Source of the DNA: an uncultured Acidobacteriota bacterium
GTDB lineage: Bacteria; Acidobacteriota; Vicinamibacteria; Vicinamibacterales; 2-12-FULL-66-21
NCBI GenBank assembly: GCA_963742265.1
Contig: CAVULC010000004.1
Span: 84,733-148,732, forward strand
DNA: 64,000 nucleotides
Direction of reading: 5' to 3'
Made by a program: the position numbers and the translations under genes. Position 1 is the first letter of the stretch. The number at the start of each line of letters is the position of its first letter. The notes below the pieces were generated by a model that saw nothing but the letters and a program-made list of their open reading frames with translations, was not told the origin of the DNA and did not search any database. Shown piece after piece: positions 3,371 through 61,042 of the stretch.

Positions 3371-4875
3371 GCGAAGAGATCAAGGAATCGGACCTCCTGC
3401 GGCAGCGGCGCGCCAATTACGAAGAGCTGCTGAAGCTTGGCGTGGAGCCGTACCCGCGGACCTTCGAACGGACTGACACCATAGACCAGCTCGTGTCCGC
3501 GCATGGCGCCAAGACGAACGAGCAGCTCGAGAACCCGCAGGTCACGACCCGTACCGCCGGCCGGATTCTCGCGATTCGCGCGTTCGGCAAGGCGAACTTC
3601 CTGGTCATCTCCGACGGCAAGGCGAAGATCCAGGTGTACATCCGGCAGGACGCGCTGTCGCCGCGCGACTTCCAGGTCTACAAGCTGCTCGATTTCGGCG
3701 ATTTCGTCGGTGTCGAAGGGCGGCTGTTCCGCACCCGCACGAACGAGTTGACGATCCATGCGTCGCAGCTCGAGTTCCTCGCCAAGTGCTTCATCCCGCT
3801 GCCCGAGAAGTGGCACGGCCTGGCGGATGTCGAGATCCGGTATCGCCAGCGCTATCTCGACCTGATCGTGAACCCGGATTCGCGGCACGTGTTCGAGGTC
3901 CGCAGCCGCACGCTCGCGGCGGTGCGCGGCTTCCTCAACGCACGCGGCTATCTCGAAGTGGAGACGCCGATGATGCAGCCGATCGCCGGCGGCGCCCTCG
4001 CGCGTCCATTTGTGACGCATCACAACACGCTCGACATGCAGCTCTATCTGCGGATTGCGCCGGAGCTGTATCTGAAGCGGCTGACCGTGGGCGGCATCGA
4101 ACGCGTCTACGAGATCAACCGTAACTTCAGGAATGAGGGGATCTCGACGCAGCACAACCCTGAGTTCACGATGCTCGAGTTCTACCAGGCCTACAGCGGA
4201 TACCAAGAGCTGATGACGATGACGGAAGAGATGTTGTCGGCCGTCGCGAAGGAGGCGATCGGCACGGACCAGATCAAGTTCGGCGAGCACGACATCTCGC
4301 TTGCGCCGCCATACCGGCGGGTCTCGCTCCGCGAAGGGGCGCGGGCGAAGGCGTCCGAGAAACTCTCGGTCGAGGTGTCGGATGCCGACTTGCGTAACGC
4401 CGAGAGCGCGGCCGCCGTCGCGAACAGGCTGGGCCTCGACCTGCAGCGCTCGTGGGGCGCAGGCAAGATTGCGACGGAGATCTTCGAGCGTTTGAACGAG
4501 CACGACCTCGTGCAACCGACCTTCGTCTATGACTTCCCGACGGAGGTCTCTCCGTTGTCGAAGCAGAAGCCCGAGGATCCCGAGACGGTCGAACGGTTCG
4601 AGTTGTATATCGGCGGCTTCGAGGTCGCCAACGCGTTCAGTGAGTTGAACGACCCGGCGGAGCAGCGGCGGCGTTTCGAGGCACAGCTCGGGGATCGCGC
4701 CGCCGGAGATCTCGAGGCGCACGCGATGGACGAGGATTACATCCGCGCGCTCGAATACGGGTTGCCGCCGACCGGCGGCGAGGGCGTCGGCATCGACCGG
4801 CTGGTGATGCTGCTGACCAACAGTCCGTCCATCCGCGATGTCATCCTGTTCCCGCTGATGCGGCCCAGACCATGA
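3367..4875 (+). CDS. lysS: lysine--tRNA ligase (class II)
   Basis: Motifs YRQRYLDL, LRIAPELYLKRL, FRNEGI..HNPEFT and GIDRLVM. Confidence 0.97.
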   Translation: MSEEIKESDLLRQRRANYEELLKLGVEPYPRTFERTDTIDQLVSAHGAKTNEQLENPQVTTRTAGRILAIRAFGKANFLVISDGKAKIQVYIRQDALSPRDFQVYKLLDFGDFVGVEGRLFRTRTNELTIHASQLEFLAKCFIPLPEKWHGLADVEIRYRQRYLDLIVNPDSRHVFEVRSRTLAAVRGFLNARGYLEVETPMMQPIAGGALARPFVTHHNTLDMQLYLRIAPELYLKRLTVGGIERVYEINRNFRNEGISTQHNPEFTMLEFYQAYSGYQELMTMTEEMLSAVAKEAIGTDQIKFGEHDISLAPPYRRVSLREGARAKASEKLSVEVSDADLRNAESAAAVANRLGLDLQRSWGAGKIATEIFERLNEHDLVQPTFVYDFPTEVSPLSKQKPEDPETVERFELYIGGFEVANAFSELNDPAEQRRRFEAQLGDRAAGDLEAHAMDEDYIRALEYGLPPTGGEGVGIDRLVMLLTNSPSIRDVILFPLMRPRP

Positions 4876-4956
4876 ACTCCAAACGTCAAACGCCAAACTC
4901 CCAAAGTACCCTGGACGTCATCTCCTTTGGAGGTTGGCGTTTGGAGTGTGGCGTTT
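4875..4956. repeat. inverted pair of heptamer arrays, (AACKCCA)x4 and its complement, forming a hairpin
   Basis: Left arm 4875-4906 is AACTCCA AACGTCA AACGCCA AACTCCC AAAG. The reverse complement of the right arm (4925-4956) is A AACGCCA CACTCCA AACGCCA ACCTCC AAAG. Confidence 0.85.
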
Positions 4957-4960
4957 AGCA

Positions 4961-6187
4961 GTGGATCTCCCCTACGAACTGTTCATTGCGGTCCGATACC
5001 TGCTGGCGCGGCGGAAGCAGGCCTTCATCTCCCTCATCTCCCTGATCTCCATCCTCGGCGTGATGGTTGGCGTCATGGCTCTCCTGATCGCGCTTGCCCT
5101 GATGACCGGCCTCCAGGGAGAACTGCGCGATCGCATTGTCGGTTCGGCCGCGCACGTCTACGTGTTCAAAGCGGGGGGCATCGACGACTACGAGTCGGAA
5201 ATCACCAAGCTCAAACAGCTGCCGCACGTGCTCGGCGCGGCGCCCGTGGCGCTCGGGCAGGCGATGGTGACTGGCCCGTCGAGCGAACAGTTCATTACCT
5301 TGAAGGGCATCGTTCCCGCTCTCGAGCCGGACGTCACGCGAATCGCGAAGTCGATGCAGAAGGGCAGCCTCTCGGCTCTCGAGACACCGGCGGGCTCGCT
5401 GCCCGGGATCGTGATCGGCGTTCAACTCGCGACCAAACTCGGCGCATTCGTTGGCGACACGATCCAGGTGATGACGCCCCAGGGCACGCTGACGCCAGGA
5501 GGCATGAGTTTCGCCCCGAAGCGCTTCAAGGTGGTTGGCCTCTTCACCCTCGGTCTGCTGGAATTCGACGAGGCTTACGGGTTCGTGACCATGGAAGTCG
5601 CTGAACGCATGCTCGGCAAGAACAAGCCGGATTACATCCAGCTCCGCGTCGACGATCTATGGAAGGCGCAGGCGGTCGCTGACTCCGTGACCGAGCGGCT
5701 CGGATCCGAATACATGCCGCAGGATTGGGCTGACATGAACAAGGCGCTGTTCTCCGCGCTGGCGCTGGAGAAGCTGGCCATCTCGGTGACGATCGGCTTG
5801 ATCGTCATGGTGGCGGCGCTCAATATCGTCGCCTCACTCGTCCTTCTCGTCATGGAGAAGAGTCGCGACATCGCGATCCTGAAGACGATGGGGAGTTCGG
5901 CGGCGAGCATTCGCAGGATCTTTGTCTTCCAGGGGCTGGTGATCGGGTTTATTGGAACCCTCGGCGGCGCCGTGTTTGGCGGGATCACCATTTTTCTCGC
6001 CGACCGTTACAAGCTCGTGCGCGTGCCGGTGGACGTCTACCAGATTTCCTACGTGCCCTTCCGCCTCGAGCCGCTGGATTTCCTCGTGGTGATCGTCTCG
6101 GCCATCCTGATCTGCTTCGTCGCAACGATCTATCCTTCACGCCAGGCATCGAAGCTCGACCCAGCGCAGGCCTTGCGGTATCAATGA
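4961..6187 (+). CDS. lolE: lipoprotein-releasing ABC permease LolC/E
   Basis: Motifs FIAVRYLLARRK..FISLISLISILGV and VAALNIVASL..LVMEK.RDIAILKTMG. Followed by lolD. Confidence 0.88.
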   Translation: MDLPYELFIAVRYLLARRKQAFISLISLISILGVMVGVMALLIALALMTGLQGELRDRIVGSAAHVYVFKAGGIDDYESEITKLKQLPHVLGAAPVALGQAMVTGPSSEQFITLKGIVPALEPDVTRIAKSMQKGSLSALETPAGSLPGIVIGVQLATKLGAFVGDTIQVMTPQGTLTPGGMSFAPKRFKVVGLFTLGLLEFDEAYGFVTMEVAERMLGKNKPDYIQLRVDDLWKAQAVADSVTERLGSEYMPQDWADMNKALFSALALEKLAISVTIGLIVMVAALNIVASLVLLVMEKSRDIAILKTMGSSAASIRRIFVFQGLVIGFIGTLGGAVFGGITIFLADRYKLVRVPVDVYQISYVPFRLEPLDFLVVIVSAILICFVATIYPSRQASKLDPAQALRYQ

Positions 6188-6861
6188 CGCCGCTGCTCGA
6201 AGCGATCGCGGTTCACAAGAGCTATGCGGTGGGCACGGCGATGCTGCCGGTGCTGAAGGGACTCGACGTGTCACTCGAGAAGGGTGAGATGGTCGCCGTC
6301 GTTGGCGCATCGGGCGTGGGCAAGAGCACGCTGCTGCACGTACTCGGTGGGCTGGACCCGGCCGACGAGGGATCGGTGCGGGTGGGAGACACGGATGTCA
6401 CGACGTTGCCGGACGCGCAGGTGGTCGCGTTCCGGAATGCGCATGTCGGGTTCGTGTTCCAGTTCCATCACCTGCTGCCGGAATTCACGGCCTTGGAAAA
6501 TGCGGAGATGCCGATGCGCATCGCCCGGCGGCCGGCGTCGGAACGACGTCAGCGCGCAATGGAATTACTCCGGCGAGTCGGCTTGGGCGAACGCCTGGAG
6601 CATCGCCCCGGGATGCTGTCTGGAGGTGAGCAGCAGCGCGTCGCGATCGCCCGCGCGCTGGTGATGGATCCGCTGATCCTGCTCGCCGACGAACCGACCG
6701 GGGACCTCGACGAACATACCGCCGAATCGCTTCACGAGCTGCTGAGAGAGATGCACCGCGAGCGCGGCCTGACGTCGCTGATCGCGACGCACAACCCGCG
6801 ACTGGCCGCTGCCTGCGATCGCGTGTTGAGGTTGGCGGATGGAAGACTGACGCCCGCCTAG
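6184..6861 (+). CDS. lolD: lipoprotein-releasing ABC ATPase
   Basis: Walker A GASGVGKS, LolD motif [18 protein letters not shown], signature LSGGEQQR. Confidence 0.92.
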
Positions 6862-6894
6862 ACCGCTCGCAGGCCGCACGCGCTGACGGCTATT

Positions 6895-7017
6895 CACAAC
6901 GACACTGCGACACACGACGCCACGACGGTCGAACAGCCTGAAGACGGTGGGTGAAGGGCTTCGCATCCTAAGCTGTTGAAAGGTTGCGTGGTGTCGTTGT
7001 GTCGTCGTGTCGTTGTG
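6895..7017. repeat. inverted pair of octamer arrays, (CACRACGA)x4, forming a ~123-nt hairpin between convergent genes
   Basis: Left arm CACAACGA CACTGCGA CACACGA CGCCACGA. Reverse complement of the right arm CACAACGA CACGACGA CACAACGA CACCACGC. Inner stem AACAGC/GCTGTT. Confidence 0.85.
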
Positions 7018-13230: not shown

Positions 13231-13263
13231 GCTGTCAGCGGGGGAGCTGACAGCTGATAGCTG
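13231..13263. repeat. AGCTG-family heptamer repeat / hairpin
   Basis: GCTGTCAGC-6nt-GCTGACAGC TGATAGCTG, just after the bamA stop. Confidence 0.65.
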
Positions 13264-16671: not shown

Positions 16672-17596
16672 GGCGATCAGGGTCGGCCGTGATCGGCGTC
16701 GGCCATCTTGGCACGCCACCATGCCCGGATCCTCGGATCGCTCGACGGCGCGACTCTCGCCGCCGTGGTCGATACATCAACGCGACCGCGCGCCGCAGAC
16801 GCTGGCGGCACGGCCGGCGCGGCCGTGTTGAGCGACTATCGCGAGCTGCTTGCGGGCGACGGTCGACGCGGTCAGTCGTCGCCGTCCCGACCGAGCTGCA
16901 CCACGACGTGGCGCTGCCGTTTCTCGAGCGCGGGAATGCGGTCCTCGTCGAGAAGCCGATGGCGCGGACGCTCGCAGAGGCGGACGAGTCTGATCGCGGC
17001 CGCGACGAGCGTCCGGCGCGACCCTCGCGGTTGGCCAGACCGAGCGCTACAACCCCGCGGTCGCCGCCGTGATGCCGCTGGTCACCTCGCCGCGGTTCAT
17101 CGAAGTCCATCGGCTCGGAGTCTTTCCCGGACCGCAGCCTCGATATCGACGTCGTGTTCGACCTGATGATCCACGACCTCGATATCGATCGCGCTCGCTG
17201 GTCCGTTCACCGTGACATCGATCGAGGCGGTCGGCGTGCCGGTGCTGACGCCGAAGTTCGATATTGCGAACGCGCGGCTCCGTTTCGAGTCCGGGTGCAT
17301 TGCCAACCTGACCGCGAGTCGGATCAGCCGCGACCGGGTCCGCAAGATCCGCTTCTTCCAGCCCGATGCGTACATTTCGATCGACTACGCGGCGCAGGAA
17401 GTCGAAGGCTGGCGGCTGGTCCGCCGCGACGGCGCGCGCCCGTCGATCGAAGGGGGCGCGCTGCCGGTCGAGAAGGACGAACCGCTGCGCCGCGAGCTCG
17501 CGGACTTCGTGCGGCGCAGTGCGCGACGAAGTCGAGGCCGCTGGTGACGGACAAGCCGGACGCGCGGCATTCGAGCTCGCGACCCGGATTGCGTGA
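16664..17596 (+). CDS. Gfo/Idh/MocA oxidoreductase, GnnA-like (frameshifted, end approximate)
   Basis: Motifs [41 protein letters not shown] and ANLTASRIS. Confidence 0.85.
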
Positions 17597-17633
17597 GAAG
17601 ATGGAAAGCGTTCCGTCGCAGCTGCATTCTACG

Positions 17634-19089
17634 ATGTTCAAAGACCTGAACGAATTCATCGCCGCACTGGACCGCGAGCGTCAGCTCGCCCGGATCACCG
17701 AGCCGGTCAACCCGGATCTCGAGATTGCGGCCGTCACCGACCGCGTGTCCAAATCGCCCGGCGGTGGACCCGCACTGCTGTTCGAAAATCCCACGGGCTA
17801 CGACATGCCGGTCGCAATCAACCTGTTCGGCTCGATGCGGCGGATGTGCATGGCGCTCGGCGTCGAGACACTCGACGACCTGGCCCGAGATGTCGAGGAG
17901 CTCACGTCACCCAGGTTGCCATCGGGCATCTTCGACGCCATGAAGATGCTGCCCACGGTGAGCCGGCTCAAGGACGCGTTGCCGAAAACCGTGAAGGACG
18001 GCCCGTGTCAGGAAGTGGTCCGCAAGGACGGCTCACTCGATGACATCCCGATCCTGAAGTGCTGGCCTGGCGATGGCGGTCGATACATTACGCTGCCACT
18101 CGTGTTCACGCGATGATCCCGAGACCGGCATGCGCAACATCGGCACCTATCGCATGCAGGTGTTCGATGGCCGCAGCACCGGCATGCACTGGCAGCGACA
18201 CAAAGGTGGGGCGCAGCATTACCGCGTGGCGGAACGGCTGAACAAACGCATGCCGGTCGCCGTGGCGCTTGGACCGGATCCGGCCCTCGCGTACGCGGCC
18301 ACGGCGCCCATGCCCGAAGGCCTCGACGAACTGATGCTCGCAGGCTTTCTCCGCCGTGACCGCGTCGAGATGGTGAAGTGCGTGACCCAGGACATGGAAG
18401 TTCCGGCAAACGCACAGATCGTCCTCGAGGGCTATGTCGATCCGGGCGAGCGCCGACGCGAAGGGCCGTTCGGCGATCACACCGGGTTCTACTCGCATCC
18501 GGACGATTACCCGGTGTTCCACCTCACCTGCATCACGCATCGCAAAAATCCCGTGTACCTGACCACCGTCGTCGGGATCCCGCCGATGGAAGATTTCTAT
18601 CTGGGGAAGGCGAGCGAGCGCGTGTTCCTCCCGCTGATCAGGAAGACATTGCCCGAGATCGTCGACATGAGTTTTCCGGCGGCCGGGATCTTCCACAATA
18701 TCGTCATCATCTCGATCGACAAGCGGTACCCGGGCCACGCCCGCAAGATCATGAATGCGTGCTGGGGTCTTGGGCAGTTGATGTTCTCGAAGACGGTGAT
18801 CGTGGTCGACAAGGACGTCGACGTCCAGAATCACGACGAAGTCGCGTGGATCGTCGGCACCCACTACGACCCCGAGCGCGACATCCAGTTCACGCGCGGA
18901 CCGGTTGACGATCTCGAAGACGCGAGCGACCTGCCGGCCTATGGCAGCAAAATGGGCATAGACGCCACGCGCAAGTGGCCGTCGGAGGGGTTCACGCGCA
19001 ACTGGCCGAAGAAGATTTCGACCACGCAGGCGGCCACCGTGAAGGCCGACGAGATGTGGCAGAAGATCAGCAAGGGATGGAAGGTATGA
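17634..19089 (+). CDS. UbiD-family menaquinone biosynthesis decarboxylase (MqnL-like, one frameshift near 18110)
   Basis: Motifs PALLFENP, WPGDGGRYIT, EGPFGDHTGFY and GSKMGIDATRK. Confidence 0.9.
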
Positions 19090-20693: not shown

Positions 20694-21944
20694 CGAATAT
20701 CGACCAGATTGCGGCGAAAGTGCAGGGCGGCGGACGCATCGATCGCGACGAGGCGATCGAGCTGTACCGCAACGCCCCGACGGCACTGCTCGGTGAGCTG
20801 GCCGACGGCATTCGGGCCCGCATGCATCCCGGCCGGGTCGTCACCTACATCATCGATCGCAACGTCAACTACACCAACGTGTGCGTAGCGCGGTGCAACT
20901 TCTGCGCGTTCTACCGCGTGGTCGGCTCGAGCGACGGATACGTGCTCGGCTTCGAGGAGATCTTCCGGAAGATCGACGAAACCATCGCGCTCGGCGGCGG
21001 GCAGCTGTTGCTGCAGGGCGGTCACAATCCGGACCTTGCCGATCGAGTGGTACGAGGACCTGTTCACGGCGGTGAAGACGCGCTATCCCGAGTTTCCGCT
21101 TGCATGCGCTCTCGCCGCCGGAGGTGATTCACCTGACGCGGATGTCCCGGCTTGACAGTGCCGCAGGTCATCGATCGTCTTGTCGCGGCCGGCCTCGACA
21201 GCATTCCCGGCGGCGGAGCGGAGATCCTCGTCGATCGCGTCCGCAAGCTGCTCAATTGCTACGGCAAAGCGACCGCTGACGAATGGCTCGACGTCATGCG
21301 TGAGGCGCATCGTGCCGGGCTGCGCACGACCGCGACGATGATGTACGGGCACGTCGAGACGCCGCAGGAGCGGCTCGAGCACATGTTCCGTCTGCGCGAT
21401 CTGCAGGACGAGTCTCGGAGGCTCCCTGCCGCTGCGTCAGCGAAGGCCGGCTTCACGGCATTCATCACCTGGAGCTATCAGCCGGAACACACCGAGCTCG
21501 GGGGCTTCGAAGCGACCGGCGTGGAGTACCTCCGGACGCTGGCGATTGCCCGGATCGTTCTCGATAACTTCGACAACCTGCAGGCGTCCTGGGTGACGCA
21601 AGGCGGCAAGGTGGGTCAGCTCAGTCTCGCGTACGGCGCCAATGACATGGGCAGCGTCATGATCGAAGAGAATGTCGTCCGCGCCGCCGGAGCCGCCTAT
21701 TGCATGGACGAGATCGAGATCGTGCGCAACATCGAGAACGCCGGCTTCACCGCGCAAGCGGCGCAACATGCACTACGAGATCCTTGGGGATCCGGTGTTC
21801 CGAGCGCGCCACGTCCCCCGTATGCTGGAACTCGCCGTCGCGCGGACCGGCGGCGACACGAGCCGCCCGCCGGAGATCGCCAACTACTCGGCACGCAGCG
21901 CTTCGGAGAAGCGCCTGCGACGCAATGGCGCAACCGAGCACTGA
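20690..21944 (+). CDS. mqnC: cyclic dehypoxanthinyl futalosine synthase (frameshifted)
   Basis: Motifs DRNVNYTNVCVARCNFCAF (CX3CX2C), LLQGGHNP, SIPGGGAEIL and GANDMGSVMIEENVV. Confidence 0.92.
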
Positions 21945-21962
21945 GCACTTCGCACCGAGCAC
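21935..21962 (+). repeat. heptamer array (YGAGCAC)x4 spanning the mqnC stop
   Basis: CGAGCAC TGAGCAC TTCGCAC CGAGCAC, with the TGA stop inside copy 2. Confidence 0.65.
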
Positions 21963-21973
21963 TTGACGAAGCG

Positions 21974-28862: not shown

Positions 28863-29905
28863 CCATTCGAGAGCAGCTGGAGCAACGAGAGCGGGAGATC
28901 CTGGCGCCTGAAGCGGCAAAGAGTGCGGATTCCAGGGGGCGGCTGCGGCAGGAGGAAGAAGATCCGATCCGGCCGGCCTTTCAGCGCGACCGGGACCGCA
29001 TCATTCATTGCAAGGCGTTCCGCCGCCTGAAACACAAAACGCAGGTGTTCTTTGCGCCCACCGGCGATCATTACCGCACCCGCCTGACGCACACCCTCGA
29101 GGTCTCGCAGATCGCGCGCAGCATCGCCAAGGTCCTGCGTGTGAATGAGGAGCTGACCGAGGCGATCGCGCTCGGTCACGATCTGGGGCACACCCCATTC
29201 GGCCACGCCGGCGAGCGCGTGCTCAGCGACCTGATCCCGGGTGGATTCAATCACTACGAGCAAAGCCTGCGCATCGTCGACGTGCTCGAGCATGACGGAG
29301 CGGGGTTGAATCTCACATGGGAAGTGCGCGACGGCATCGCCCGGCACTCGAAGGGCAAGAGCGGCATGCCGGTCGGCGCGGATCCGGAACATCGTGCCAG
29401 CACGATCGAAGGACAGATCGCCCGGGTCGCCGACATCATCGCCTACGTCAATCACGATATCGACGATGCGGTCCGCGCCGGGTTGTTGCGTGAAGAGGAT
29501 CTGCCGCGTGAGCGCGTCACCGTTCTGGGCCGCAGTTCATCGGAGCGTATCGGCCGCATGGTCACCGACGTCGTACACCAGACGCTCGATGGCGGAATGG
29601 CCGAGATCAGGATGAGCGATCAGATCCTCGACGCCACTGTCGGTCTCCGCAGCTTTTTGTTCGAAGCGGTTTACGAGAACGAGGTGGCGACCGCCGAGTT
29701 CAAGAAGGCGGGAGGGATCCTCGGCGGTCTCTGGGAGAAGGTCCGCGAACAGCCCACGGAGTACCTGGACGCAAAGACGATCGCGTCGGAAGGCCTGGAC
29801 GTGGCAGCCAAGGACTTTCTCGCCGGCATGACGGACCGTTACGCGGTCAACCTCTACGAGCAGCTCTTCGTGCCGAAGCCGTGGGTCGCCATCCGGCGCG
29901 AATAG
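28859..29905 (+). CDS. dgt: deoxyguanosinetriphosphate triphosphohydrolase-like HD protein
   Basis: Motifs [31 protein letters not shown] and [13 protein letters not shown]. Confidence 0.93.
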
Positions 29906-29941
29906 CTAACAGCTAACAGCTCTCAGCTTTCAGTTGTCAGC
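29904..29941. repeat. AGCT-family heptamer array
   Basis: AGCTAAC AGCTAAC AGCTCTC AGCTTTC AGTTGTC AGC, starting in the dgt TAG. Confidence 0.75.
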
Positions 29942-29985
29942 CTCCAGTCTCAACTGGCGCAGATCGGTTTGCATCGCAAACCGCG

Positions 29986-30958: not shown

Positions 30959-30964
30959 CGCTGC

Positions 30965-31138
30965 GATGAGCCGATGAGCCGATGAGCCGATGAGCCGATG
31001 AGCCGATGAGCCGATGAGCCGATGAGCCGATGAGCCGATGAGCCGATGAGCCGATGAGCCGATGAGCCGATCGGCCGATGGCTCGATCCCGATCATCCGA
31101 TGGGCGATGATCCGATGTGGATAGCCGATTGCCCGATT
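30965..31138. repeat. octamer tandem array (GATGAGCC)x13 perfect, plus a degenerate tail
   Basis: 13 exact copies at 30965-31068, then GATCGGCC GATGGCTC GATCCC GATCATCC and further decay. Confidence 0.95.
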
Positions 31139-31733: not shown

Positions 31734-31916
31734 GTGCCTAATCCTAAACGCCGGCATTCCAAGAGCCGGACGGCCAAGCGCCGCACCCACGACACGCTGA
31801 AGCCGGTGCCCGTCGGCACCTGTCCCCAGTGCCAGGAAGCCAAGCAGCCCCACCAGGTCTGCAGCAACTGCGGCTACTACAACGGGCGGCAGGTCAAGGC
31901 TGTCGAAGAAGCATAG
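31734..31916 (+). CDS. rpmF: 50S ribosomal protein L32
   Basis: Motifs MPNPKRRHSKSR and CPQC...PHQVC..CGYY.GR. Confidence 0.97.
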   Translation: MPNPKRRHSKSRTAKRRTHDTLKPVPVGTCPQCQEAKQPHQVCSNCGYYNGRQVKAVEEA

Positions 31917-31955
31917 CTGTAGCCGGTAGCTGAAAGCTGGCAGCTGAAAGCTGGA
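31915..31955. repeat. AGCTG-family heptamer array
   Basis: AGCTGT AGCCGGT AGCTGAA AGCTGGC AGCTGAA AGCTGGA, starting in the rpmF TAG. Confidence 0.75.
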
Positions 31956-33880: not shown

Positions 33881-33917
33881 CGGATGGCTGGAAGCTGGTA
33901 GCTGGCAGCCGGTAGCT
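33858..33917. repeat. AGCTG-family heptamer array overlapping the fabD 3' end
   Basis: AGCTGAA AGCTGGC GGCTCTT AGCGGAT GGCTGGA AGCTGGT AGCTGGC AGCCGGT AGCT, in exact 7-nt register. Confidence 0.75.
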
Positions 33918-34957: not shown

Positions 34958-36199
34958 TTGAGCAGGCGAGTGGTCGTGACGGGCGTCGGCATCGTGTCGC
35001 CGCTCGGCATCGGCACCGAGGCGAACTGGGAAGCACTCTGCGCGGGTCGCAGTGGGATCGGCTTGATCACCCACTTCGACGCCTCGCAGTTTTCCGCGCG
35101 TATCGCGGGTCAAGTCAAGGACTTCGATCCGCTGCGCTTCGTCGATAAAAAAGACGTCAAGAAGATGGACGTCTTCATCCAGCTCGCGATCGCCGCGTCG
35201 CAGTTCGCGGTCGAGGACGCCGGCTTTGCCGTGACGCCAGAGAATGCGACGCGGGTCGGCGTGTTCATTGCGTCCGGCATCGGCGGTTTCGGCACGATCG
35301 AACGCGAGCACAAGGCCTTTCTCGAAGGCGGTCCCCGTCGCATCTCTCCCTTTTTCATTCCGGCGACCATCATCAACCTCGCCGCGGGGCAGGTGTCTAT
35401 TCGCCTCGGCGCGAAGGGGCCGAACTCGGCGACCTGCACGGCGTGCTCGGCGTCAGCGCATGCCATCGGTGATGCCTTCGAGATCATCCGCCGCGACGAT
35501 GCGGACGTGATGATCGCGGGAGGATCCGAAGCCGCGATCACCCCGCTCGCAGTGGGCGGGTTCGCCGCGATGCGCGCCCTGTCGACCCGTAACGATGATC
35601 CCGAGCGCGCGAGCCGTCCATTCGAGAAGGACCGTGAGGGCTTCGTCATGGGGGAGGGATCCGGCATCCTCGTGCTCGAAGAGCTGGAGTTCGCGAAACG
35701 TCGCGGCGCGCCGATCTACGCGGAAGTGGTCGGCTACGGCATGACCGCGGACGCGTTCCATATCACCGCCCCGTCCGAGGATGGAGACGGCGGCATGCGC
35801 GTCATGGAGATGGCCATCCGCCGCGCGGGCATCAAGCCGGCAGACGTCGATTACATCAACGCCCACGGCACCTCGACACCCTTCAACGACAAGCTCGAAA
35901 CGCTCGCGATCAAGCGGCTGTTCGGCGAGCACGCGCACAAGCTGCAGATCTCATCGACCAAGTCGATGACCGGTCACCTGCTGGGGGCCGCCGGAGGGCT
36001 CGAGGCCGGCATCACCGCGCTGGCGATCAAGCACCAGCTGATCCCACCCACGATCAACTACGAGACGCCCGATCCGGACTGCGACCTCGATTACGTGCCC
36101 AACACCAAGCGCGAGGCGAAGATCGAGTACGCACTGTCGAACTCGTTCGGCTTCGGCGGCACCAACGGGGCGTTGCTGTTCAAGCGCTTCCATGAGTAG
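34958..36199 (+). CDS. fabF: beta-ketoacyl-ACP synthase II
   Basis: Motifs [31 protein letters not shown] and SNSFGFGG.N. Confidence 0.96.
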
Positions 36200-36234
36200 C
36201 TGACAGCTGATCGCTGACAGCTCACAGCTGAAAG
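36198..36234. repeat. AGCTG-family heptamer array
   Basis: AGCTGAC AGCTGAT CGCTGAC AGCTCAC AGCTGAA AG. Starts in the fabF TAG and fills the spacer to etfB. Confidence 0.8.
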
Positions 36235-37001: not shown

Positions 37002-37957
37002 TTCTCGTCATCGCCGAGCAACGTGAAGGGAAATTGAATCGCGCGTCCTGGGAAACGATCGCGGCGGCGCAGCAGGCTGGCGGTCCGGTCAAGATCGCGG
37101 TGCCCGGCGCCGGCGTGGATGCGCTCGCAACCGAGCTGGCCGGTGCCGATGCTGCGGAGGTGATCACGGTGGACGCGCCCGCCCTTGCGGACTATACGGC
37201 TGACGGTTACGTCCAGGCCCTGTCATCGTTGATTGCCGCCGAGTCGCCGACCCACGTCTTCCTGCCGCACACGTACCAGACGCGCGATTTCGCTCCGGCA
37301 CTCGCAGCCCGTCTGCAGCGGGCGCTGATCACCGATGTGACCGCGATCAAGAAGCAGGGAGACGGGATCATCTACGTGCGTCCGGTGTTCCAGGGAAAGC
37401 TGAACGCCGACGTCTCCGCAGAAGGCCCGGCACCGCATCTCGTCACCTGTCAGATCGGTGCATTTCGGGCGGACGCGGCTGTGCGCGGGGCGTCGCCAGC
37501 TGCGGTCCGCAAGGCGGCGATCGAGGTCGACGCCTCGGCCATCCGCCAGAAGCCGGAAGCGCCGTTCAAGGAAGCCAAGCAGGCGGTCGACCTGTCGCAG
37601 GCTGAACGGATCGTCGCCGTTGGTCGCGGGATCAAGGGGCAGGAGCATCTTCAGCTGGTCGAAAAACTGGCGCAGGCCATGGGTGCGGAGATCGCGGCGT
37701 CGCGACCGATCTGCGATTCCGGGTGGCTGCCGATGGATCGCCAGATCGGGAGCTCAGGGCAGACCGTTGCACCCAAGCTTTACGTCGCGCTCGGCATCTC
37801 CGGAGCGATTCAGCATCTCGTCGGCATGAAGGGTTCGCGCACCATCGTCGCCATCAACAAGGATCCGGAAGCACCGATCTTCGAGATCGCGGACTTCGGT
37901 ATCGCGGGAGACCTGTTCGAAGTGGTGCCGGCGTTGATTGCGGAATTGAGTAAGTAG
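36998..37957 (+). CDS. etfA: electron transfer flavoprotein alpha subunit
   Basis: Motif QIGSSGQTVAPKLYVALGISGAIQHLVGM..INKD.EAPIF. Confidence 0.95.
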   Translation: MILVIAEQREGKLNRASWETIAAAQQAGGPVKIAVPGAGVDALATELAGADAAEVITVDAPALADYTADGYVQALSSLIAAESPTHVFLPHTYQTRDFAPALAARLQRALITDVTAIKKQGDGIIYVRPVFQGKLNADVSAEGPAPHLVTCQIGAFRADAAVRGASPAAVRKAAIEVDASAIRQKPEAPFKEAKQAVDLSQAERIVAVGRGIKGQEHLQLVEKLAQAMGAEIAASRPICDSGWLPMDRQIGSSGQTVAPKLYVALGISGAIQHLVGMKGSRTIVAINKDPEAPIFEIADFGIAGDLFEVVPALIAELSK

Positions 37958-37987
37958 CTGTCAGCCGTGAGCTGACAGCTGAGAGCT
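37956..37987. repeat. AGCTG-family heptamer repeat / 10-bp hairpin
   Basis: AGCTGTCAGC-CGTGA-GCTGACAGCT GAGAGCT. Starts in the etfA TAG and ends at the next ATG. Confidence 0.75.
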
Positions 37988-39677: not shown

Positions 39678-40379
39678 GTGCGGCTCTCTGCCTGGCAGCG
39701 CTTCAAGGCGACATTGATCGCGGGGATCGCCTTTCCGCTGATCGCCGTCCTCTGCCGCACCTACCGCTGGAGAGTGGACGGCGCGTCGCGCTTCGATGCG
39801 ATCATCTCCTCTGGACGGCAACCGATCCTCGCACTCTGGCATGGCCGCATCCTCGCCGGCCTGCATCACTTCCGCAACCGGCACATCGTCGTCATCACGA
39901 GCCAGAACTTCGATGGTGAGTGGATCGCACAGATCCTGGAGAAGTTCGGGTTCAGCACGGCGCGGGGGTCAACGTCGAGAGGGGGCGCCCGCGCGCTGGT
40001 GCAGTTGCGCCGCGATCTGCTGGCGGGGAAGCCGGCCGCCTTCACCGTAGACGGACCGCGCGGTCCGGCGCGAGTCGTTCAGCCGGGGGTGGTGTTTCTG
40101 GCCGGGGCCACCGGACAGCCGATTCTTCCGTATCACATCGAATCAGATCGCCACTGGACGCTCGGCAGCTGGGATCGCACGCAGATTCCAAAGCCGTTTG
40201 CGAATGTGGCGCTGGCGATTGGCGAGCCACTCACGGTCCCGGGCACGGAGGAGCGAATTCTCGAGGAGCACAGGGCCACGGTGGACGCGGCGCTTCGAGG
40301 GTTGGAGGTCCGGGCTCTGGAGATGTTGAGGGAGACACCGAGAGCCGGTAGCCACAGAGGCACAGAGGCACAGAGTTAA
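39678..40379 (+). CDS. DUF374 / lysophospholipid acyltransferase family protein (start uncertain)
   Basis: Motifs LALWHGR, SQNFDGE, RGSTSRGG, TVDGPRGP and SWDR..IPKPF. Confidence 0.85.
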   Translation: MRLSAWQRFKATLIAGIAFPLIAVLCRTYRWRVDGASRFDAIISSGRQPILALWHGRILAGLHHFRNRHIVVITSQNFDGEWIAQILEKFGFSTARGSTSRGGARALVQLRRDLLAGKPAAFTVDGPRGPARVVQPGVVFLAGATGQPILPYHIESDRHWTLGSWDRTQIPKPFANVALAIGEPLTVPGTEERILEEHRATVDAALRGLEVRALEMLRETPRAGSHRGTEAQS

Positions 40380-40420
40380 CAGGTTACACAAGGCCACAGA
40401 GACACAGAGGCACAGAGGCA
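40351..40420 (+). repeat. octamer arrays (CACAGAGR)x3 in two direct blocks
   Basis: GCCACAGAGGCACAGAGGCACAGAG (40351-40375) and GCCACAGAGACACAGAGGCACAGAG (40393-40417). Confidence 0.85.
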
Positions 40421-40422: not shown

Positions 40423-41442
40423 ATGCTGTTGTTTACATCGCCGCGGTTTGGCGAGCACGTTACGCCGCCGGGGCACCCGGAGAGGCCGGAGCGGGCCCGC
40501 GTGTTCGACGAGGTGGCGTCAGGCTGGCGCGAACAGGGGGGACGGACGGCAGAACCGCGGCCGGCTTCGCGCGAGGAGCTCGCGCGCGTGCACGACGCGG
40601 TGCATCTCGCTCGCATCGAGTCGGTTGCGGGCAAACCGTCGATGCTCGACCCGGACACGTTTACATCGCCGGAGTCGTACGAGGTCGCGCTCCTCGCGGC
40701 AGGCGCCACGGTGCAGGCGGCCGAACATGCGTTGAGAACGCGCGAAACTGCATTCGCGCTGGTGCGCCCGCCGGGTCACCATGCCGAGCGGGAAAAGGCG
40801 ATGGGATTCTGTCTCTTCAACAGCGTCGCCGTCGCGGCAGCGGCGGCGATCGCTTCCGGCATCGAGCGGGTCGCGGTGGTTGACATCGATGTCCATCACG
40901 GCAACGGCACGCAATCGATTTTCTATGACGATCCGCGGGTGCTGTACGTGTCGAGCCATCAGTTCCCGTTTTATCCGGGCACCGGCGCCGCCGAGGAAAG
41001 CGGCGCCGGGAAGGGCAAGGGCTTCACCGTCAACATACCGATGGAAGCGGGATCGACCGACGCCGACTACGACCTGGTTTACCGCGCCATAGTGGTCCCG
41101 GTCCTCGAGCAGTTCGAGCCGCAGCTGACGTTGGTATCCGCCGGCTATGACGCACACGAAGCAGACCCGCTCGCGTCGATGCGCATGAGCGCGGGCGGCT
41201 ACGCTCGAATCGTCGCGCAGATCAAGGCCGCCGCAGCGAAGTCTGGAGTGCTGGCGCTCGTCACCGAGGGAGGCTACGACCTGCCCGCCTTGCGCGATTG
41301 TTTAGAGGTCACTCTCTCGATTCTCAGCACGGACGCCGTCGCGGGGAACGCGAAGGAATTCACAGCTTCTCCGGCTCCGCGCGGTGAGCGTGGTGTCGCC
41401 GCCGCCCGCGCCGCCAACGCCCGCTATTGGCCCGGTCTATAG
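40423..41442 (+). CDS. histone deacetylase family (Zn-dependent deacylase)
   Basis: Motifs HPERPER, RPPGHHA, GFCLFN, DIDVHHGNGTQ, SAGYDAH and EGGY. Confidence 0.94.
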   Translation: MLLFTSPRFGEHVTPPGHPERPERARVFDEVASGWREQGGRTAEPRPASREELARVHDAVHLARIESVAGKPSMLDPDTFTSPESYEVALLAAGATVQAAEHALRTRETAFALVRPPGHHAEREKAMGFCLFNSVAVAAAAAIASGIERVAVVDIDVHHGNGTQSIFYDDPRVLYVSSHQFPFYPGTGAAEESGAGKGKGFTVNIPMEAGSTDADYDLVYRAIVVPVLEQFEPQLTLVSAGYDAHEADPLASMRMSAGGYARIVAQIKAAAAKSGVLALVTEGGYDLPALRDCLEVTLSILSTDAVAGNAKEFTASPAPRGERGVAAARAANARYWPGL

Positions 41443-41508
41443 CACGTCCGCAGGCGGCACGTCCCGCCGTCCGCATATAAGCACGTCGCACCTGCCACCT
41501 CCCACGTG
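41442..41508 (+). repeat. degenerate heptamer array (GCACGTC-like)
   Basis: GCACGTC..GCACGTC..GCACGTC GCACCTG CCACCTC CCACGTG, starting at the HDAC TAG. Confidence 0.55.
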
Positions 41509-53542: not shown

Positions 53543-56263
<2,721 letters not shown>

Positions 56264-56295
56264 CCGTCTATCTTACGGTCGACCGGTAGACGGTC

Positions 56296-56397
56296 GTAGT
56301 GCAGCCCTTTAGGGCTGCCATGTCAGTCGTAGTGCAGCCCTTCAGGGCTGCTGATGGTCTTTTCGTCTGATGATGCAGCCCTGAAGGGCTGCACTAC
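56296..56397. repeat. cluster of three GTAG-type REP palindromes (BIME-like)
   Basis: GTAGTGCAGCCCTT(T/C)AGGGCTGC at 56296-56318 and 56329-56351, with an inverted copy at 56375-56397. Confidence 0.88.
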
Positions 56398-56861
56398 GTC
56401 TCGCTGGACGATGACCCGATGCGTCGTATCGCCGTCGAAACGGCCGCCGGTGTGAAGCCCTGGCGCATCAGGAACTGGTAGAGACGCGCCCGCTCCTGCA
56501 TCGTGACCAGCTTCTTGCCGCCACGGAGCTTCTTCTGAATGGCGCGGTCGATCAGCGCTCGTTCGTCCAGATCGGCGAACACGTCCGCGATCGCTTCGCC
56601 GCGATCTCCCGGGCGATGCCGACGTCTGCAGCTCGCGCGTGACGCGCAGCCGTCCGCGTCCTTTGATCTTCAGCGCGGTGCGCGCGTAGGCACGGGCGAC
56701 GCGGCGGTCATCGAGCGCGCCCGTTCTCGAGCAGCTCGTTCAACGGCGTCGTCGATCTCTTCGGGGGTGTGTTCCCGATCGATCAGGCGCGATCGGAGCT
56801 GCTGCACCGACGAGCTCCCGCCGCGCGAGCAGTCTCGAGTGCGTCGATATAGGCACGTCAC
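56394..56861 (-). CDS. recX: regulatory protein RecX (frameshifted)
   Basis: Rebuilt: LLARRE.S..QLRSRL, LDDRR.A..Y, KGRG..R and RLYQFLMRQGF. Upstream of alaS. Confidence 0.8.
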
Positions 56862-58007
56862 TATCCACCGAACCTGGTGATCTCCGGCGCGGCCCTGCCG
56901 ACGCTCTTCGCCATGGTGTCGCGAGCGAGATCGGCAGTGGTGGAGATGCCCTGGACCTTCAGCTTGAATTCGTCGACGTTCGACGCCCACCGCATCGCTT
57001 CGTCGAGCGTGACCTGCCCCTGCTGATAGAGACCGAAGATCGACTGATCGAACGTCTGCATCCCGTACTGCGATGTACCGGCGGCAATCGCCCCGTGGAT
57101 CTGGGACGTCTTGTCCTTGTCGACGATGCAGTCACGGATGAAGGCGGTGGTGACCATGACTTCGACCGCCGGGACGCGTCCGACGCCGTTGGCGCGCGGC
57201 ATCAGCCGCTGTGAGATCGCCGCCTTGAGGACGCTGGCGAGCTGGATGCTGACCTGCCGCTGCTGGTGCGGCGGGAACACCGCGATGATGCGATTGATCG
57301 TCTCGGTCGCGTCGAGTGTGTGCAGCGTCGAGACGACCAGGTGGCCCGTCTCGGCGGCGAGCAGCGCCGTCTCAACCGTTTCGTGATCGCGCATTTCGCC
57401 GACCAGGATCACATCCGGATCCTGGCGCAGCGCGCTGCGCAGCGCATGCGAGAACGATTGGTGTCGACGTTGATTTCGCGCTGGTTGACGATCGAGTGGT
57501 GGTCCCGATGCAGATACTCGATCGGGTCCTCGATCGTCATGATGTGCGCGGAACGGGTCGAGTTGATGTGGTCGATCAGCGCCGCGAGGGTCGTGCTCTT
57601 GCCGCTCCCTGTCGTCCCGGTCACCAGGACGAGCCTCGTTCCTCGGTGGCGATGTGCTTGAGGACGCCGGGCAGTCCGAGCTCGTCGATCGAGGCGATCC
57701 GGGTCGGGATGACGCGCATGACGATCCCGACGGTGCCGCGCTGCTGAAAGGCGTTGCAACGGAACCGGCCGAGACCGGGGACGCTGTACGCGAGGTCCAC
57801 TTCCTGCGAGGTCTTGAACTTCTGGGCCAGGTCGGGCGTGAAGAGTGCCTGCGCGAACGCCTCGGTGTCGGCCCGCTCCAGCCGCTTCTCTTCGCTGGCG
57901 ACCACGAGCGTGCCGCTGACCCGCATCATCGGGTAGCTCCCGACCTTGATATGCAGGTCGGAGGCGCCGGCCGTGACAGCAGTTTGTAGAAGCTCGTTGA
58001 TATGCAT
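56861..58007 (-). CDS. pilT: type IV pilus retraction ATPase PilT/PilU family (frameshifted)
   Basis: Motifs [45 protein letters not shown] and AETGHLV.STLHT. Confidence 0.92.
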
Positions 58008-58054
58008 CTGTGCCAGCCCTGGCTGCCTTGTGCCAGCTCTCGGCCCAGCGCGCG

Positions 58055-59036
58055 CTAGCTTCGCGCCGCGGGCCTTTGGCTGATCCGGCGCCTACCGGCT
58101 GCAGCGGCTCGCCCGGGTAGACATACGTCAGCCAGTTGTGGCGATCGGGCACTTCGCCCTTGATGATGTCGAAGAACTCCTGCTGGATCGCCGCCGTGAT
58201 CGGACCGCGTGCGCCGGCGCCGATCTGGACCTTGTCGACCGAGCGGATCGGCGTGATCTCGACCGCGGTGCCGGCAAAGAACGCCTCGTCGCAGATGTAC
58301 AGCAGCTCGCGCGGGAGCATCTCTTCGCGGACCTTGTAACCGAGTTCGCGCGCGATGGTGATCACGCTGTTGCGGGTGATCCCCGGCAGGATCGACGCGG
58401 TCAGCGGCGGCGTGTAGATGCAGTCGTCGCGGACGACGAACAGGTTCTGGCCGCTGCCCTCGCTCAGATAGCCGAACGTGTCGAGCGCGATGCCTTCGCT
58501 GTAGCCCTCGACGATCGCTTCCATCTTGATCAACTGCGAGTTGGCGTAGTTGGCAGATGTCTTGGCGAGCGTCGGGAAGGTGTTCGGCGCTGATCGCGAC
58601 CACGAGGCGATCCGGACGTCCACGCCGTTGGTCAGGGCTTCGTTGCCGAGGTAAGCGCCCCATTCCCACGTCAGCACCGCTGCGTCGACGGGGCAGGGGA
58701 ACGGGTTGACGCCGAGTGCGTTGTAGCCGCGATAGATGATCGGGCGGATGTAGCAGGCCTTCTGCTCGTTGGCCCGGATCGTTTCCAGGACCGCGTCGTC
58801 ATCGCCGGCTGATCCAGTGCCGGCTCCATCCGGTAGATGCGCGCCGAATCGAACAGGCGCTTCATGTGCGTGTCGAGCCGGAAAATCGCCGAGCCCTTCG
58901 GCGTGTCGTAGCAGCGGATGCCTTCGAAGACACCGCTGCCGTAGTGGATGACGTGCGACGCGATGTGAATCTTCGCGTCTGCCCACTCCACGAGGGAGCC
59001 GTTCATCCAGATTTTTCCGGTCCCGCTGAAGGCCAT
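58055..59036 (-). CDS. ilvE: branched-chain amino acid aminotransferase (frameshifted)
   Basis: Motifs [35 protein letters not shown] and GTAVEITP. Confidence 0.94.
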
Positions 59037-59135: not shown

Positions 59136-60122
59136 CTACTGTTTTTCGTTACAGAACGGGCATCGATCGGTGCGCGCGTGGAGCGGCTTCCGGCACTGCC
59201 AGCAGAATCGAGCCGCCGGTGCTTCGCGGGCGCGCAATCGGTTCTGGATGCCCTGCGAATCATCGGACCGACGCGGGGCTCCGCGGCGTCGACCGTTGCT
59301 GCAGCGGCCGGATTGAGGCGTGCGCCGCGTTCGGGCCGACAGCACATCTTCCATGAGGTCGGTGGCCCGCTGATAGCGGTTCGTGACATCCGGTGACAGC
59401 GCCTTCATCACGATGTCGCTGATCACTTTCGGGATCGCGGAATTCTTCAGCCGCGGCGGCGACACCAGCTCGCCGGACATCAGCTTGCCCAGGTCGGCCG
59501 GCGCGGGCGCATCGTAGGGCAGCATGCCGGTGAGCATCTGGTACATCGTGATGCCGACCGAGTAGATGTCGGATGCAAACACGGCTTTGCCGGAGAACTG
59601 TTCCGGCGCCATGTAGGGTGGACTGCCGATGACGGTCGTGCCGTGGGCCGCGATCTCGAGAAAGCGCGACGTCCCGAAGTCGGCGACCTTGCACATGTCG
59701 TTGTCGGTCACCAGCACGTTGGCCGGGCGAAGATCGCGATGGATCACGCCTTGCCGATGGGCATGATCGACGGCGTTGCAGATCTGGCAGGTGAAGTCGA
59801 GCGACCGGTTGACGTCCAGCGCGCCGGCGGCCGCGATGATGTTCTCGAGCGTCTCGCCAGGGACGTACTCCATCACGATGAAGAAGACGTTGTCCTCTTT
59901 CTCCGCCGTGATGATCGACACGATGTTGGGATGACTGACGCTGGCGAGCAGGCGCGGCTCGTGGAGGAGCTCGCCGAAGTCCATGTTCTGGCGGTGCGGG
60001 ACCTTGATCGCGACGCGCTTGTCGATCCAGGTGTCTTGCGCGAGGTACACGGCGCCGAAGCCACCGCTGCCCAGGGGCGCGATGATCTTGTACTTGCCGA
60101 GGTTCTGGCCCTTGAAAAGCAA
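59136..60122 (-). CDS. Hanks-type protein kinase with C-terminal zinc ribbon
   Basis: [25 protein letters not shown] and [10 protein letters not shown]-terminal CWQC-x10-CPFC. Confidence 0.9.
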
Positions 60123-60148
60123 TGTCCGGCTGCAGGATAATCAGGCGC

Positions 60149-60883
60149 ATGCTGCCGCGCTTTTACGCGCCCGACCTCGACCCGGATCTCGCGTCGGTGA
60201 TGTTGCCGCCCGACGAAGCGCGCCACCTGACGCGCGTCCTGCGACTCGGCGCCGGAGACGAGGTCGTCGTGTTCGACGGCCGCGGCGCCGAGTACCGCGC
60301 GGTCGTTGAAGCCGCCGTGCGCGAGACCGCATCGTTGCGGGTGGTCGAGCGCATACCGGCGATCGCCCGGCCCCCTCGCCATCGTCGTTGCCCGTCGGTG
60401 CTCAAGGGCGACAGCATGGACGCCGCGGTCCGCGACGCGACGATGATGGGGGCCGAAGCATCCAGCCGGTGCTGACCGCGCACACTGATGTGAAGCCGTC
60501 ATTCGCCCGTCGCGGAGAGACCCTGGCGCGGTGGCGGCGGGTCGCGATGGCGTCGGTGAAGCAATGCCGTCGCGCGACGTTGCCGGTCATTTCAGAGCCG
60601 CGCAGCCTTGAGTCGTGGCTGCTGGCCGGCTGGTTGATCTGACGCTGCTATTCGTGGAGCCGTCCGCAGGGATGAATGTACAGCCCATGCACTCGTTGCT
60701 GAGCCTGGAGAAACCGAGACGACTGGCGGTGCTGCTTGGCCCTGAAGGGGGCTGGCAGTCGGGAGTGTCGACGCCGCGATCCGGGGTGGCTGTGTCCCGG
60801 TGACGTTCGGGCCGTTCACGCTCCGTGCCGAATCGATGGCGGTCGCTGCACTGGCTGCGATCGCAGCGATCTGGGGGCTCTAA
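60149..60883 (+). CDS. rsmE: 16S rRNA m3U1498 methyltransferase (frameshifted)
   Basis: Motifs EARHLTRVLRL..GD.V.VFDG.G, QCRR, LGPEGG and LRAE. Confidence 0.9.
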
Positions 60884-60885
60884 GG

Positions 60886-60955
60886 GGTGCCACGGTGCCA
60901 GGGTGCCACGGTGCCAGGGTGCCAGGGTGCCAAGGTGCCAAGGTGCCAAGGTGCC
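60886..60955. repeat. octamer array (GGTGCCAV), ~9 copies
   Basis: GGTGCCA+C,G,C,G,G,A,A,A then GGTGCC. Begins 2 nt after the rsmE stop. Confidence 0.92.
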
Positions 60956-60958
60956 GTT

Positions 60959-61042
60959 AGCTGATGGCTGAAAGCTGATGGCTGTCAGCTGATAGCTGTC
61001 AGCTGATAGCTGTTAGCTGAGACCTGTTAGCTGAACGCTGTC
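60959..61042. repeat. AGCTG-family heptamer array, 12 copies
   Basis: AGCTGAT GGCTGAA AGCTGAT GGCTGTC AGCTGAT AGCTGTC AGCTGAT AGCTGTT AGCTGAG ACCTGTT AGCTGAA CGCTGTC, abutting the prmA stop. Confidence 0.9.

Follow-up and report, generated by a model that had tools for sequence, protein, structure and literature searches.

The short tandemly repeated repetitive (STRR) sequences of cyanobacteria are heptamer repeats, and why such repeats build up in scattered bacterial lineages, and what role they have there, is a question that has stood since at least 2007. Here we describe tandem arrays with units of 7 or 8 nt in a 64-kb stretch of DNA (the window, G000:C4:84733-148732) from the metagenome-assembled genome (MAG) of a soil acidobacterium of the Vicinamibacterales, G000, and in that genome as a whole; other G-numbers denote the genomes of relatives. 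The arrays belong to a known, unexplained class of bacterial heptamer repeats and are no new kind of element. Our preferred explanation, which we hold tentatively, is that they are microsatellite foldbacks grown in place at the 3' ends of genes, where they possibly serve as generic 3'-end structures.

According to the summary of Mrazek 2007 given in PMC4679880, heptanucleotide units are the commonest among long simple sequence repeats (LSSRs), and a proposed cause is slippage tied to a 7-nt contact of the polymerase. As far as that summary describes the LSSR class, our arrays share with it a tandem direct arrangement of 7-nt units (the 5-11-nt class), a sporadic occurrence across phyla, a mostly non-coding location and variable copy numbers; we found ~7-nt tandem repeats beyond chance, an excess of them in non-coding DNA and copy numbers that vary between relatives. 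They differ in that periods of 7 and 8 occur together, many families coexist and a large share forms inverted pairs. The Vicinamibacterales are not among the lineages named for LSSR heptamers in the corresponding passages of PMC4679880. In the sections of PMC4692102 on the G-rich heptamers of the GGGNATC type (Rehm 2015), the repeats of Xanthomonas and Nostoc are in intergenic excess, with few of them in divergent spacers. They lie no more than 50 bp from the closest open reading frame (ORF); those following a stop are on the coding strand, those preceding a start on the non-coding strand. Some overlap the stop codon, and the modal copy number is four. The present arrays resemble these heptamers in lying near an ORF and reading away from it, in their rarity between divergent genes, in the overlap with stops and in the mode of four. 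In addition, the GGGTGCC and AGGGTTCC families contain G3 tracts 4-5 nt apart. Unlike the heptamers of that report, the present families are for the most part not rich in G (AACTCC, AGCTG, CACAGAG).

The genome of Geobacter metallireducens contains 'putative global regulator binding sites' of classes 1-3, pairs of sites on opposite strands at variable distance, each made of four or five tandem octa- or heptanucleotides and present in dozens of copies per genome (Aklujkar 2009, PMC2700814). Arrays of the same unit on opposite strands and at variable distance are likewise found here, as 42 inverted pairs. Their motifs are different, and anchoring to stop codons and turnover between species are not described in the passages of PMC2700814 that present the paired sites. 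The TAACTGA repeats of marine Beggiatoaceae, some Cyanobacteria and Bacteroidetes (169 direct, 1 indirect; passages of MacGregor 2015, PMC4679880) are intergenic heptamers containing two stop triplets, comparable to TAGCTGA here. They represent one motif placed mostly just upstream of starts, whereas we see many motifs, often in inverted pairs and anchored to stops. With repetitive extragenic palindromes (REPs) and REP doublets forming hairpins (REPINs) the arrays share an intergenic location, a preference for gene 3' ends, hairpins and genome-wide numbers in the hundreds. The two differ in that a REP is a conserved palindrome of 20-40 nt flanking the gene of a REP-associated tyrosine transposase (RAYT), whereas in the arrays nothing longer than the 7-8-nt unit is conserved and each centre is unique. 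Unique pair centres, unconserved flanks and the lack of a common word order set them apart from miniature inverted-repeat transposable elements and other small mobile elements, and a head-to-tail arrangement of 7-8-nt units with no spacers sets them apart from CRISPR, in which repeats of 23-50 nt alternate with unique spacers of about equal length. Rfam gave 0 matches at gathering score in the 64-kb window. For Acidobacteriota our literature search retrieved no paper describing such repeats, nor did it retrieve any that settles what they do. The initial annotation of this window, made from the sequence alone, was right in knowing of no described function, although the repeat class itself had already been published for other phyla. 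For the stop-codon shift, the missing covariation of arms and the similarity gradient reported below we have met no earlier description, no literature search having been aimed at them.

The assembly of G000 comprises 3.17 Mb in 18 contigs (G+C ~64%, completeness 63.8%), and the nearest relatives of the lysS gene in the window come from Vicinamibacterales MAGs (Acidobacteriota). Genes were called with our own crude codon-usage scoring, which gave 2771 genes over 83% of the genome and left 554,822 nt as intergenic DNA. Arrays were detected with Tandem Repeats Finder (TRF), and ten dinucleotide shuffles of the intergenic DNA served as the null for array counts. Merging overlapping rows with a score of at least 34 resulted in 378 arrays, of which 310 are non-coding, 66 lie within called genes and 2 are at contig edges.

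Periods 7 and 8 stand out sharply. For period 7 there were 254 intergenic TRF rows against a shuffle mean of 19.6, and for period 8 there were 145 against 27.3; at a score of at least 40 the intergenic arrays numbered 150 and 79, respectively, vs 0.1 and 0.2 in shuffled DNA. Intergenic rows of period 5 (2 vs 3.5 shuffled) and period 10 (34 vs 34.4) were not enriched. Most rows are non-coding at period 7 (71%) and period 8 (58%), and the mostly non-coding share is 58-72% over periods 7, 8, 14 and 16; it is 13-21% for periods 3, 6, 9 and 12 (17-21% for 6, 9 and 12). The vocabulary is broad, with 76 canonical units of period 7 and 60 of period 8. The large non-coding families are AACTCC/GGAGTT (56), AGCT-type (47), GGTGCC (44) and GGTTCC (18), and 111 arrays fall outside named families. 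Within GGTGCC-type arrays the two periods are mixed, the core-to-core distance being 7 in 66 cases and 8 in 140. Neighbouring arrays belong to one family in 18 of 55 cases, compared with 19.6% after permutation; the observed share was reached in 27 of 2000 permutations. A genome-wide class with such a preference for 7 and 8 across many motifs is consistent with one generating process, as had been surmised from the window. The modal copy number is ~4 (92 of the 310 non-coding arrays). We considered this mode as a quadruplex signature and rejected it: the same mode occurs in families that are not G-rich, so it is not quadruplex-specific, and it lies near the detection limit.

The arrays are concentrated at the 3' ends of genes, as had been claimed for the window. 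An array is present in 232 spacers, namely 62 of 353 convergent, 148 of 1451 co-directional and 22 of 395 divergent ones. The distance from the stop codon to the array is at most 3 nt in 83 of 272 cases and at most 10 nt in 129 of 272, whereas only 10 of 192 arrays end within 3 nt of a start. Often the register of the array continues into the stop itself (TAG-CTGAC, TAG-GTGCC, TAA-CTCC). The stops within 6 nt of an array are TGA in 24 cases, TAG in 49 and TAA in 30, compared with 771, 314 and 197 at array-free spacers of at least 30 nt, a shift to TAG and TAA with a chi-square of 52.9 (p 3e-12).

The orientation of the arrays is also constrained. In 63 of 74 arrays the left position belongs to AACTCC and the right one to GGAGTT, and GGTGCC is left with GGCACC right in 42 of 55. 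With the arm order fixed in each family, the motif directly following a stop is nearly always in one sense: counted from our listing, of the arrays of the GGTGCC type no more than 6 nt from a stop, ~35 have one sense and a single one has the opposite sense, and solo arrays within 11 nt of a stop obey the arm-order rule 14 to 2. The 'antisense' solo arrays lie 20-60 nt from the stop, as expected of right arms whose left arm has decayed. GGTGCC-type arrays point away from the nearer gene in 42 of 55 cases. Arms of the GGAG type end 4-33 nt upstream of a start in 14 of the 15 listed cases, the fifteenth overlapping a predicted start. The dinucleotide TA occurs within 10 nt of free array ends in 27% of cases vs a background of 16.8%, with a test window that extends into the arrays, and this excess may come from the arrays' own composition.

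Units within an array resemble their neighbours more than distant units. Over 60 arrays the mean unit difference was 1.44, 1.49, 1.90 and 2.07 positions at lags of 1, 2, 3 and 4 (lag 1 vs lag 3, p ~1e-6). A double period fitted better in 83 of the 310 arrays and a triple period in 34. Taken together, neighbour similarity and double or triple periods indicate local duplication of one to three units. Orders of three-unit words were not common to different loci in excess of a random-deal null (AGCT 0 vs 0.1, GGTGCC 23 vs 19.2+-5.4), and thus no recent copying between loci is seen.

We then compared 61 junctions of the window across up to six congeners, using a strict detector that made 0 false calls in shuffled spacers. 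Filled and empty states were both found at 19 junctions, which is the polymorphism at orthologous junctions that the initial annotation had anticipated; 40 were never occupied and 2 were known from G000 only. A relative carried an array at 2 of 17 junctions where G000 is filled and at 26 of 184 where G000 is empty, and its occupancy is hence independent of the state in G000. The fabF-etfB junction illustrates this turnover (25 of 29 loci readable, the window's own included). Among 11 congeners it is empty in 2, where the genes overlap by ATGA, filled with arrays of at least five motifs in 8, and occupied by a non-repeat hairpin in 1. In a more sensitive TRF table, AGCT-type arrays recur at the fab/etf junctions of G000, G004, G008 and G012. 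The density in six sampled genomes of the genus, G000 included, is 1.0-2.5 arrays per 10 kb, and of 12 genomes sampled elsewhere in the order, a small set representing other families, 7 had no array in 20 kb. Period-7/8 arrays also flank lysS in loci labelled Desulfuromonadales, Thermoanaerobaculia, Syntrophaceae and others. The genus, with a dozen congeners sequenced and one third of the compared junctions differing among them, offers a good natural experiment. Array-rich and array-poor families adjoin within one order, making a phylogenetically corrected search for the responsible gene or genes feasible, and in cultured relatives any role of the arrays in termination, 3'-end protection or translational coupling would be directly testable.

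In each sister species a different repeat family has expanded. Arrays of ACGTGCG with 11-20 copies are found in sister genomes where G000 has overlapping genes or short spacers: at the nusB-lysS junction of G004 (283-nt spacer) and, in G009 and G004, near the equivalents of window positions 56199-57412.

Many arrays are paired. An inverted partner array lies within 200 nt of 84 of the 378 arrays, and 45 more have tandem reverse-complement copies nearby. The arms of the 42 inverted pairs are 84.5% complementary with a median length of 30 nt, and their centres (1-80 nt, median 24 nt, G+C 57%) are unique, sharing just a few 9-mers. Of 12 elements in the window, 8 are more stably folded than shuffles (z <= -2.9). 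The window's consensus terminator-like sites did not exceed those in shuffles (15 vs 12.4, 21 vs 11.6, 3 vs 8.3). A T run ends two window elements (13231 and 33887), and most elements are without one.

These features can be accommodated by growth in place. Long simple-sequence repeats of 7/8 nt would gain or lose one to three adjacent units by slipped-strand or unequal exchange. The arrays would expand through constraint-free DNA and so accumulate next to stop codons, sometimes furnishing a TAG or TAA stop, and would be tolerated mainly at gene 3' ends. Where one motif occurs as two oppositely oriented arrays on either side of a unique centre, as it often does, an imperfect foldback of ~30 nt per arm would result. 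Foldbacks and G-rich runs could act as generic 3'-end structures, in pausing or termination, 3'-end protection or insulation between neighbours, and in operons GGAG-type arms may mask or unmask the next ribosome binding site. The data show period specificity, position, orientation, growth in place and quick gain and loss among sister species, whereas any function, as well as the route by which motif families reach new junctions, is something we infer; where the arrays act at all, generic 3'-end structures are the most likely role, in the setting of a lineage without enriched consensus terminators.

Several observations weigh against this explanation. Slippage alone leaves the lack of enrichment at periods 5, 6, 9 and 10 unexplained, and it is silent on why a few motif families are dominant within the genome and turn up at different junctions throughout the genus. 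The fixed left/right arm order of each family does not follow from it either. Arrays sit between genes that overlap in sister species, where the same motif is unlikely to have had a seed on the spot. Four of the 12 window elements miss z <= -2.9, the GGTGCCAA array at -2.1 and three being no different from shuffles. In the 42 pairs, variable unit positions match in 63% of cases in the best register and in 54% one unit off. The arms thus match because the same word is used, not through co-variation; since complementarity is not kept unit by unit, a precise hairpin is under no visible compensatory selection. Finally, gene boundaries come from our own crude caller on a frameshift-rich MAG. The restriction to periods 7 and 8, the dominance and recurrence of a few families and the fixed arm order keep a bolder reading alive, in which the arrays would not be generic slippage products. 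A dedicated, lineage-restricted activity, for instance a break-repair or nicking enzyme extending both DNA ends outward with the same 7-8-nt repeat, would lay the arrays. Although we regard it as quite unlikely, an end-extending activity of this kind would jointly explain the opposite-polarity arms of the same motif, the fixed arm order and the unique centre, and also the filled overlapping junctions, the differences in family between sister species and the patchy distribution in the order.

The arrays might instead be a neutral or selfish by-product, mutational weeds of unconstrained DNA that play no part in expression and whose position and orientation are set by insertion tolerance and family ancestry. 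We consider this somewhat improbable. Rapid gain and loss with no positional conservation among congeners, the lack of compensatory covariation between arms and the very broad motif vocabulary are what weeds would produce, and occupancy tracks the number of promoter-free gene 3' ends per spacer; the patchiness within the order, with 7 of 12 genomes of other families free of arrays in 20 kb, points the same way. They would leave unaccounted for the strong orientation of stop-proximal arrays (~35 vs 1 in the GGTGCC type), the stop-codon shift, the recurrence of AGCT-type arrays at the fab/etf junctions in four congeners and the neighbouring arrays of the same family above permutation. Another possibility is that the arrays are DNA lattices for proteins binding cooperatively every 7-8 bp, as roadblocks or nucleoid organisers at gene ends. 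The ribbon-helix-helix proteins omega repressor, MetJ and ParG bind arrays of heptad or 8-bp boxes cooperatively. A period held at 7-8 while the motif varies, and the use of the same unit in direct and inverted arrangement, would suit such proteins, and the paired arrays of Geobacter metallireducens were read as 'global regulator binding sites' in the passages of PMC2700814 that name them. Mismatches within an array are concentrated in two columns (140 of 167 vs 63% expected), but this concentration is confounded by duplicated founder units. We likewise discarded core-vs-linker conservation as a sign of selection: the column test is confounded in that way, and the family logos are circular because the core itself defined the units. 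With dozens of unrelated cores per genome demanding many proteins, sites not kept between sister species and no candidate protein identified in the present analysis, we judge a protein lattice unlikely.

A dedicated installing activity, such as small non-autonomous mobile elements, target-site duplications from repeated insertion and excision or a break-repair enzyme laying repeats outward, would be in line with arrays arising de novo between overlapping genes, with genus-wide families at shifting loci while other families dominate in sister species, and with the fixed arm order about a unique centre. It would also agree with the favoured TA-containing stops and the TA excess near free array ends, but this excess may stem from array composition. 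The centres of the 42 pairs have no common sequence beyond the few 9-mers, no three-unit word order is common to loci beyond the null, and there are no conserved termini. The RAYT-type Y1 transposase of the genome has its own classical 33-35-nt REP, unlike the arrays, and Rehm et al. report having found no mobile-element link (PMC4692102). We see installation by such elements or enzymes as improbable. The initial annotation had further listed scars of a small-cassette insertion and excision system, with arrays as scars or attachment sites. One junction fits this proposal: that between the HD-domain gene and yceD (window 29905-31200) carries a variable cassette bordered by arrays. These bordering arrays do not share a motif within G000 (AGCTAAC vs CGATGAGC) or between genomes. 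At 60 of 61 junctions the variation among congeners concerns repeats or a brief spacer and no gene, the centres are unique, no word order is common, and no recombinase adjoins the arrays in the window, making cassette scars by far the least credible of these explanations. The cassette itself encodes a ~200-aa membrane protein with no Pfam match and a ~115-aa winged-helix-like protein. G000 has one set of it; the set is repeated in G004 (4.7 kb) and in G007 (2.1 kb), while G008 (408 nt) and G012 (105 nt) lack it.

In the window, period-7/8 tandem arrays are present at 13 of the 14 sites that the initial annotation had named, 12 of them by TRF and one (6895) by eye in the sequence. At the remaining site, 41442..41500, copies of GCACGTC are dispersed 20-28 nt apart; they are not tandem, gave no TRF row and fall outside the array class. 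Two inverted partners (4926 for 4875 and 6987 for 6895) had gone unremarked. The first of these pairs, identified from TRF, sequence and Pfam, spans 4875..4956 between lysS, whose stop codon is at 4873-4875, and a lolE-like permease gene. Its left arm, AACKCCA at 4875-4898 (TRF AACGCCA x3.4), is followed by a unique centre and a right arm of TTTGGAG/GGTGGCG at 4926-4956; the RNA folds at -34.6 kcal/mol (z -4.0), a value equalled by 0 of 200 shuffles. The second, an inverted octamer pair at 6895..7017 after the lolD-like ABC ATPase gene, comprises a degenerate CACRACGA arm at ~6895-6927, which is below the TRF score, and a TRF-detected arm of CGTTGTGT x3.9 at 6987-7017 (fold z -6.0). After the BamA-like fragments, a short foldback of the AGCTG type at 13231..13263 (TRF 13245-13263, AGCTGAC x2.7) forms a hairpin followed by UUUUU, a run of five T in the DNA (z -4.2). 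Four copies of YGAGCAC at 21936..21964 (TRF 21936-21963, GAGCACT x4) lie at the end of an MqnC/CofH-like radical SAM gene and 9 nt upstream of the ATG of an amidohydrolase frame; a frameshift is likely upstream, and the end of the radical SAM gene was inferred from Pfam domain ends and frames.

The left edge of the variable two-gene insertion is marked by an AGCTAAC/AGCTYTC array at 29904..29941 (TRF 29904-29921, AGCTAAC x2.6; z -3.0), which begins within the TAG stop of the HD-domain gene. At its right edge is the longest array of the window, CGATGAGC x19.6 at 30964..31117 (TRF score 222), with 13 perfect copies and decaying copies after them. From the TAG stop of rpmF (L32, identified by translation) towards plsX extends an AGCTGNN array at 31914..31954 (TRF 31928-31953, AGCTGAA x3.7); this junction is empty in G009 and G007 and carries AGCT-type foldbacks in G008, G004 and G012. 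Between fabD and fabG, a GCTGGNA array at 33887..33917 (TRF x4.4; z -3.2) has counterparts of like motif type in G009 and G012, with copy numbers differing from G000. The fabF-etfB spacer is filled at 36198..36231 by AGCTGAC x4.9, which begins at the TAG stop and ends 5 nt short of the ATG; its fold is not significant vs shuffles (z -1.4). The spacer that separates etfA from the ETF-QO gene is taken up by an AGCTGNN foldback at 37956..37987 (TRF 14-nt double unit x2.3; z -3.95).

Upstream of a deacetylase-family gene, TRF detected a direct array of CACAGAGG x8.2 at 40353..40420. It has no foldback, is unstructured (z +0.2) and is missing from the orthologous junction in G009, G004 and G012. 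Finally, two abutting arrays occupy 60886..61042 between the convergent rsmE-like and prmA-like genes (TRF, Pfam): GGTGCCAA x8.8 at 60886-60955 and, at 60958-61042, TAGCTGA in a 14-nt double unit x11 (z -7.6). Both flanking genes are split in the assembly.

In the window, Pfam identifies the neighbouring genes as lysS, the lolE/lolD-like genes, plsX-fabD-fabG-acpP-fabF, etfB-etfA with ETF-QO, and the rsmE- and prmA-like genes, and the Pfam names agree with the gene guesses of the initial annotation. Seven conserved genes are split into two or three frames: BamA (10762-13217), UbiD (17154-19089), a radical SAM gene of the MqnC/E-like type (20690-22219), AlaRS (54012-56199), a PilT/T2SSE-like ATPase (56861-58986), RsmE (60122-60883) and PrmA (61043-61666). 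This suggests frameshift errors of the assembly, or pseudogenes. With so many conserved genes split, gene boundaries are approximate and not to be trusted at base level. In 20 public sequencing runs, at most 1/4 of the sampled words were present, and only as short contigs; the pieces from runs X1, X2, X4 and X20 measure 91-480 nt, with no demonstrated case of a piece that crosses an array. The window also contains an Hfq gene (27468-27677) in a miaA-hfq arrangement, a possible RNA-binding partner.

Two candidate causes of the arrays were considered and rejected. Loss of mismatch repair is contradicted by MutS domain V, which is present in 31 of 31 genomes. A RAYT as the maker is also disfavoured: Y1_Tnp is found in 25 of 31 genomes and is loosely linked to arrays, and the REP of the gene is a different element. 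In 20-kb samples, Y1 and arrays occurred together in 14 genomes, Y1 only in 4, arrays only in 2 and neither in 4, these genomes being kin and not independent.

The REP family of G000 is a ~22-nt palindrome, GCAGCCCT-N2-4-AGGGCTGC, with GTAG in front, and has 133 copies in the genome. Tandem REP units of 33-35 nt at C5:30980-31700 flank the RAYT-type Y1 gene (C5:31110-31616), which has GTAG-type palindromes and no 7/8-nt arrays at its sides. A second Y1_Tnp gene (C7:120220-120822, ~200 aa) is single-copy and conserved in the genus (G004, G007, G008, G012); beside it there is no REP or array, just a G+C-rich palindrome downstream. In the window, REP palindromes lie between the AlaRS and RecX-like genes, at 56301, 56334 and 56375.

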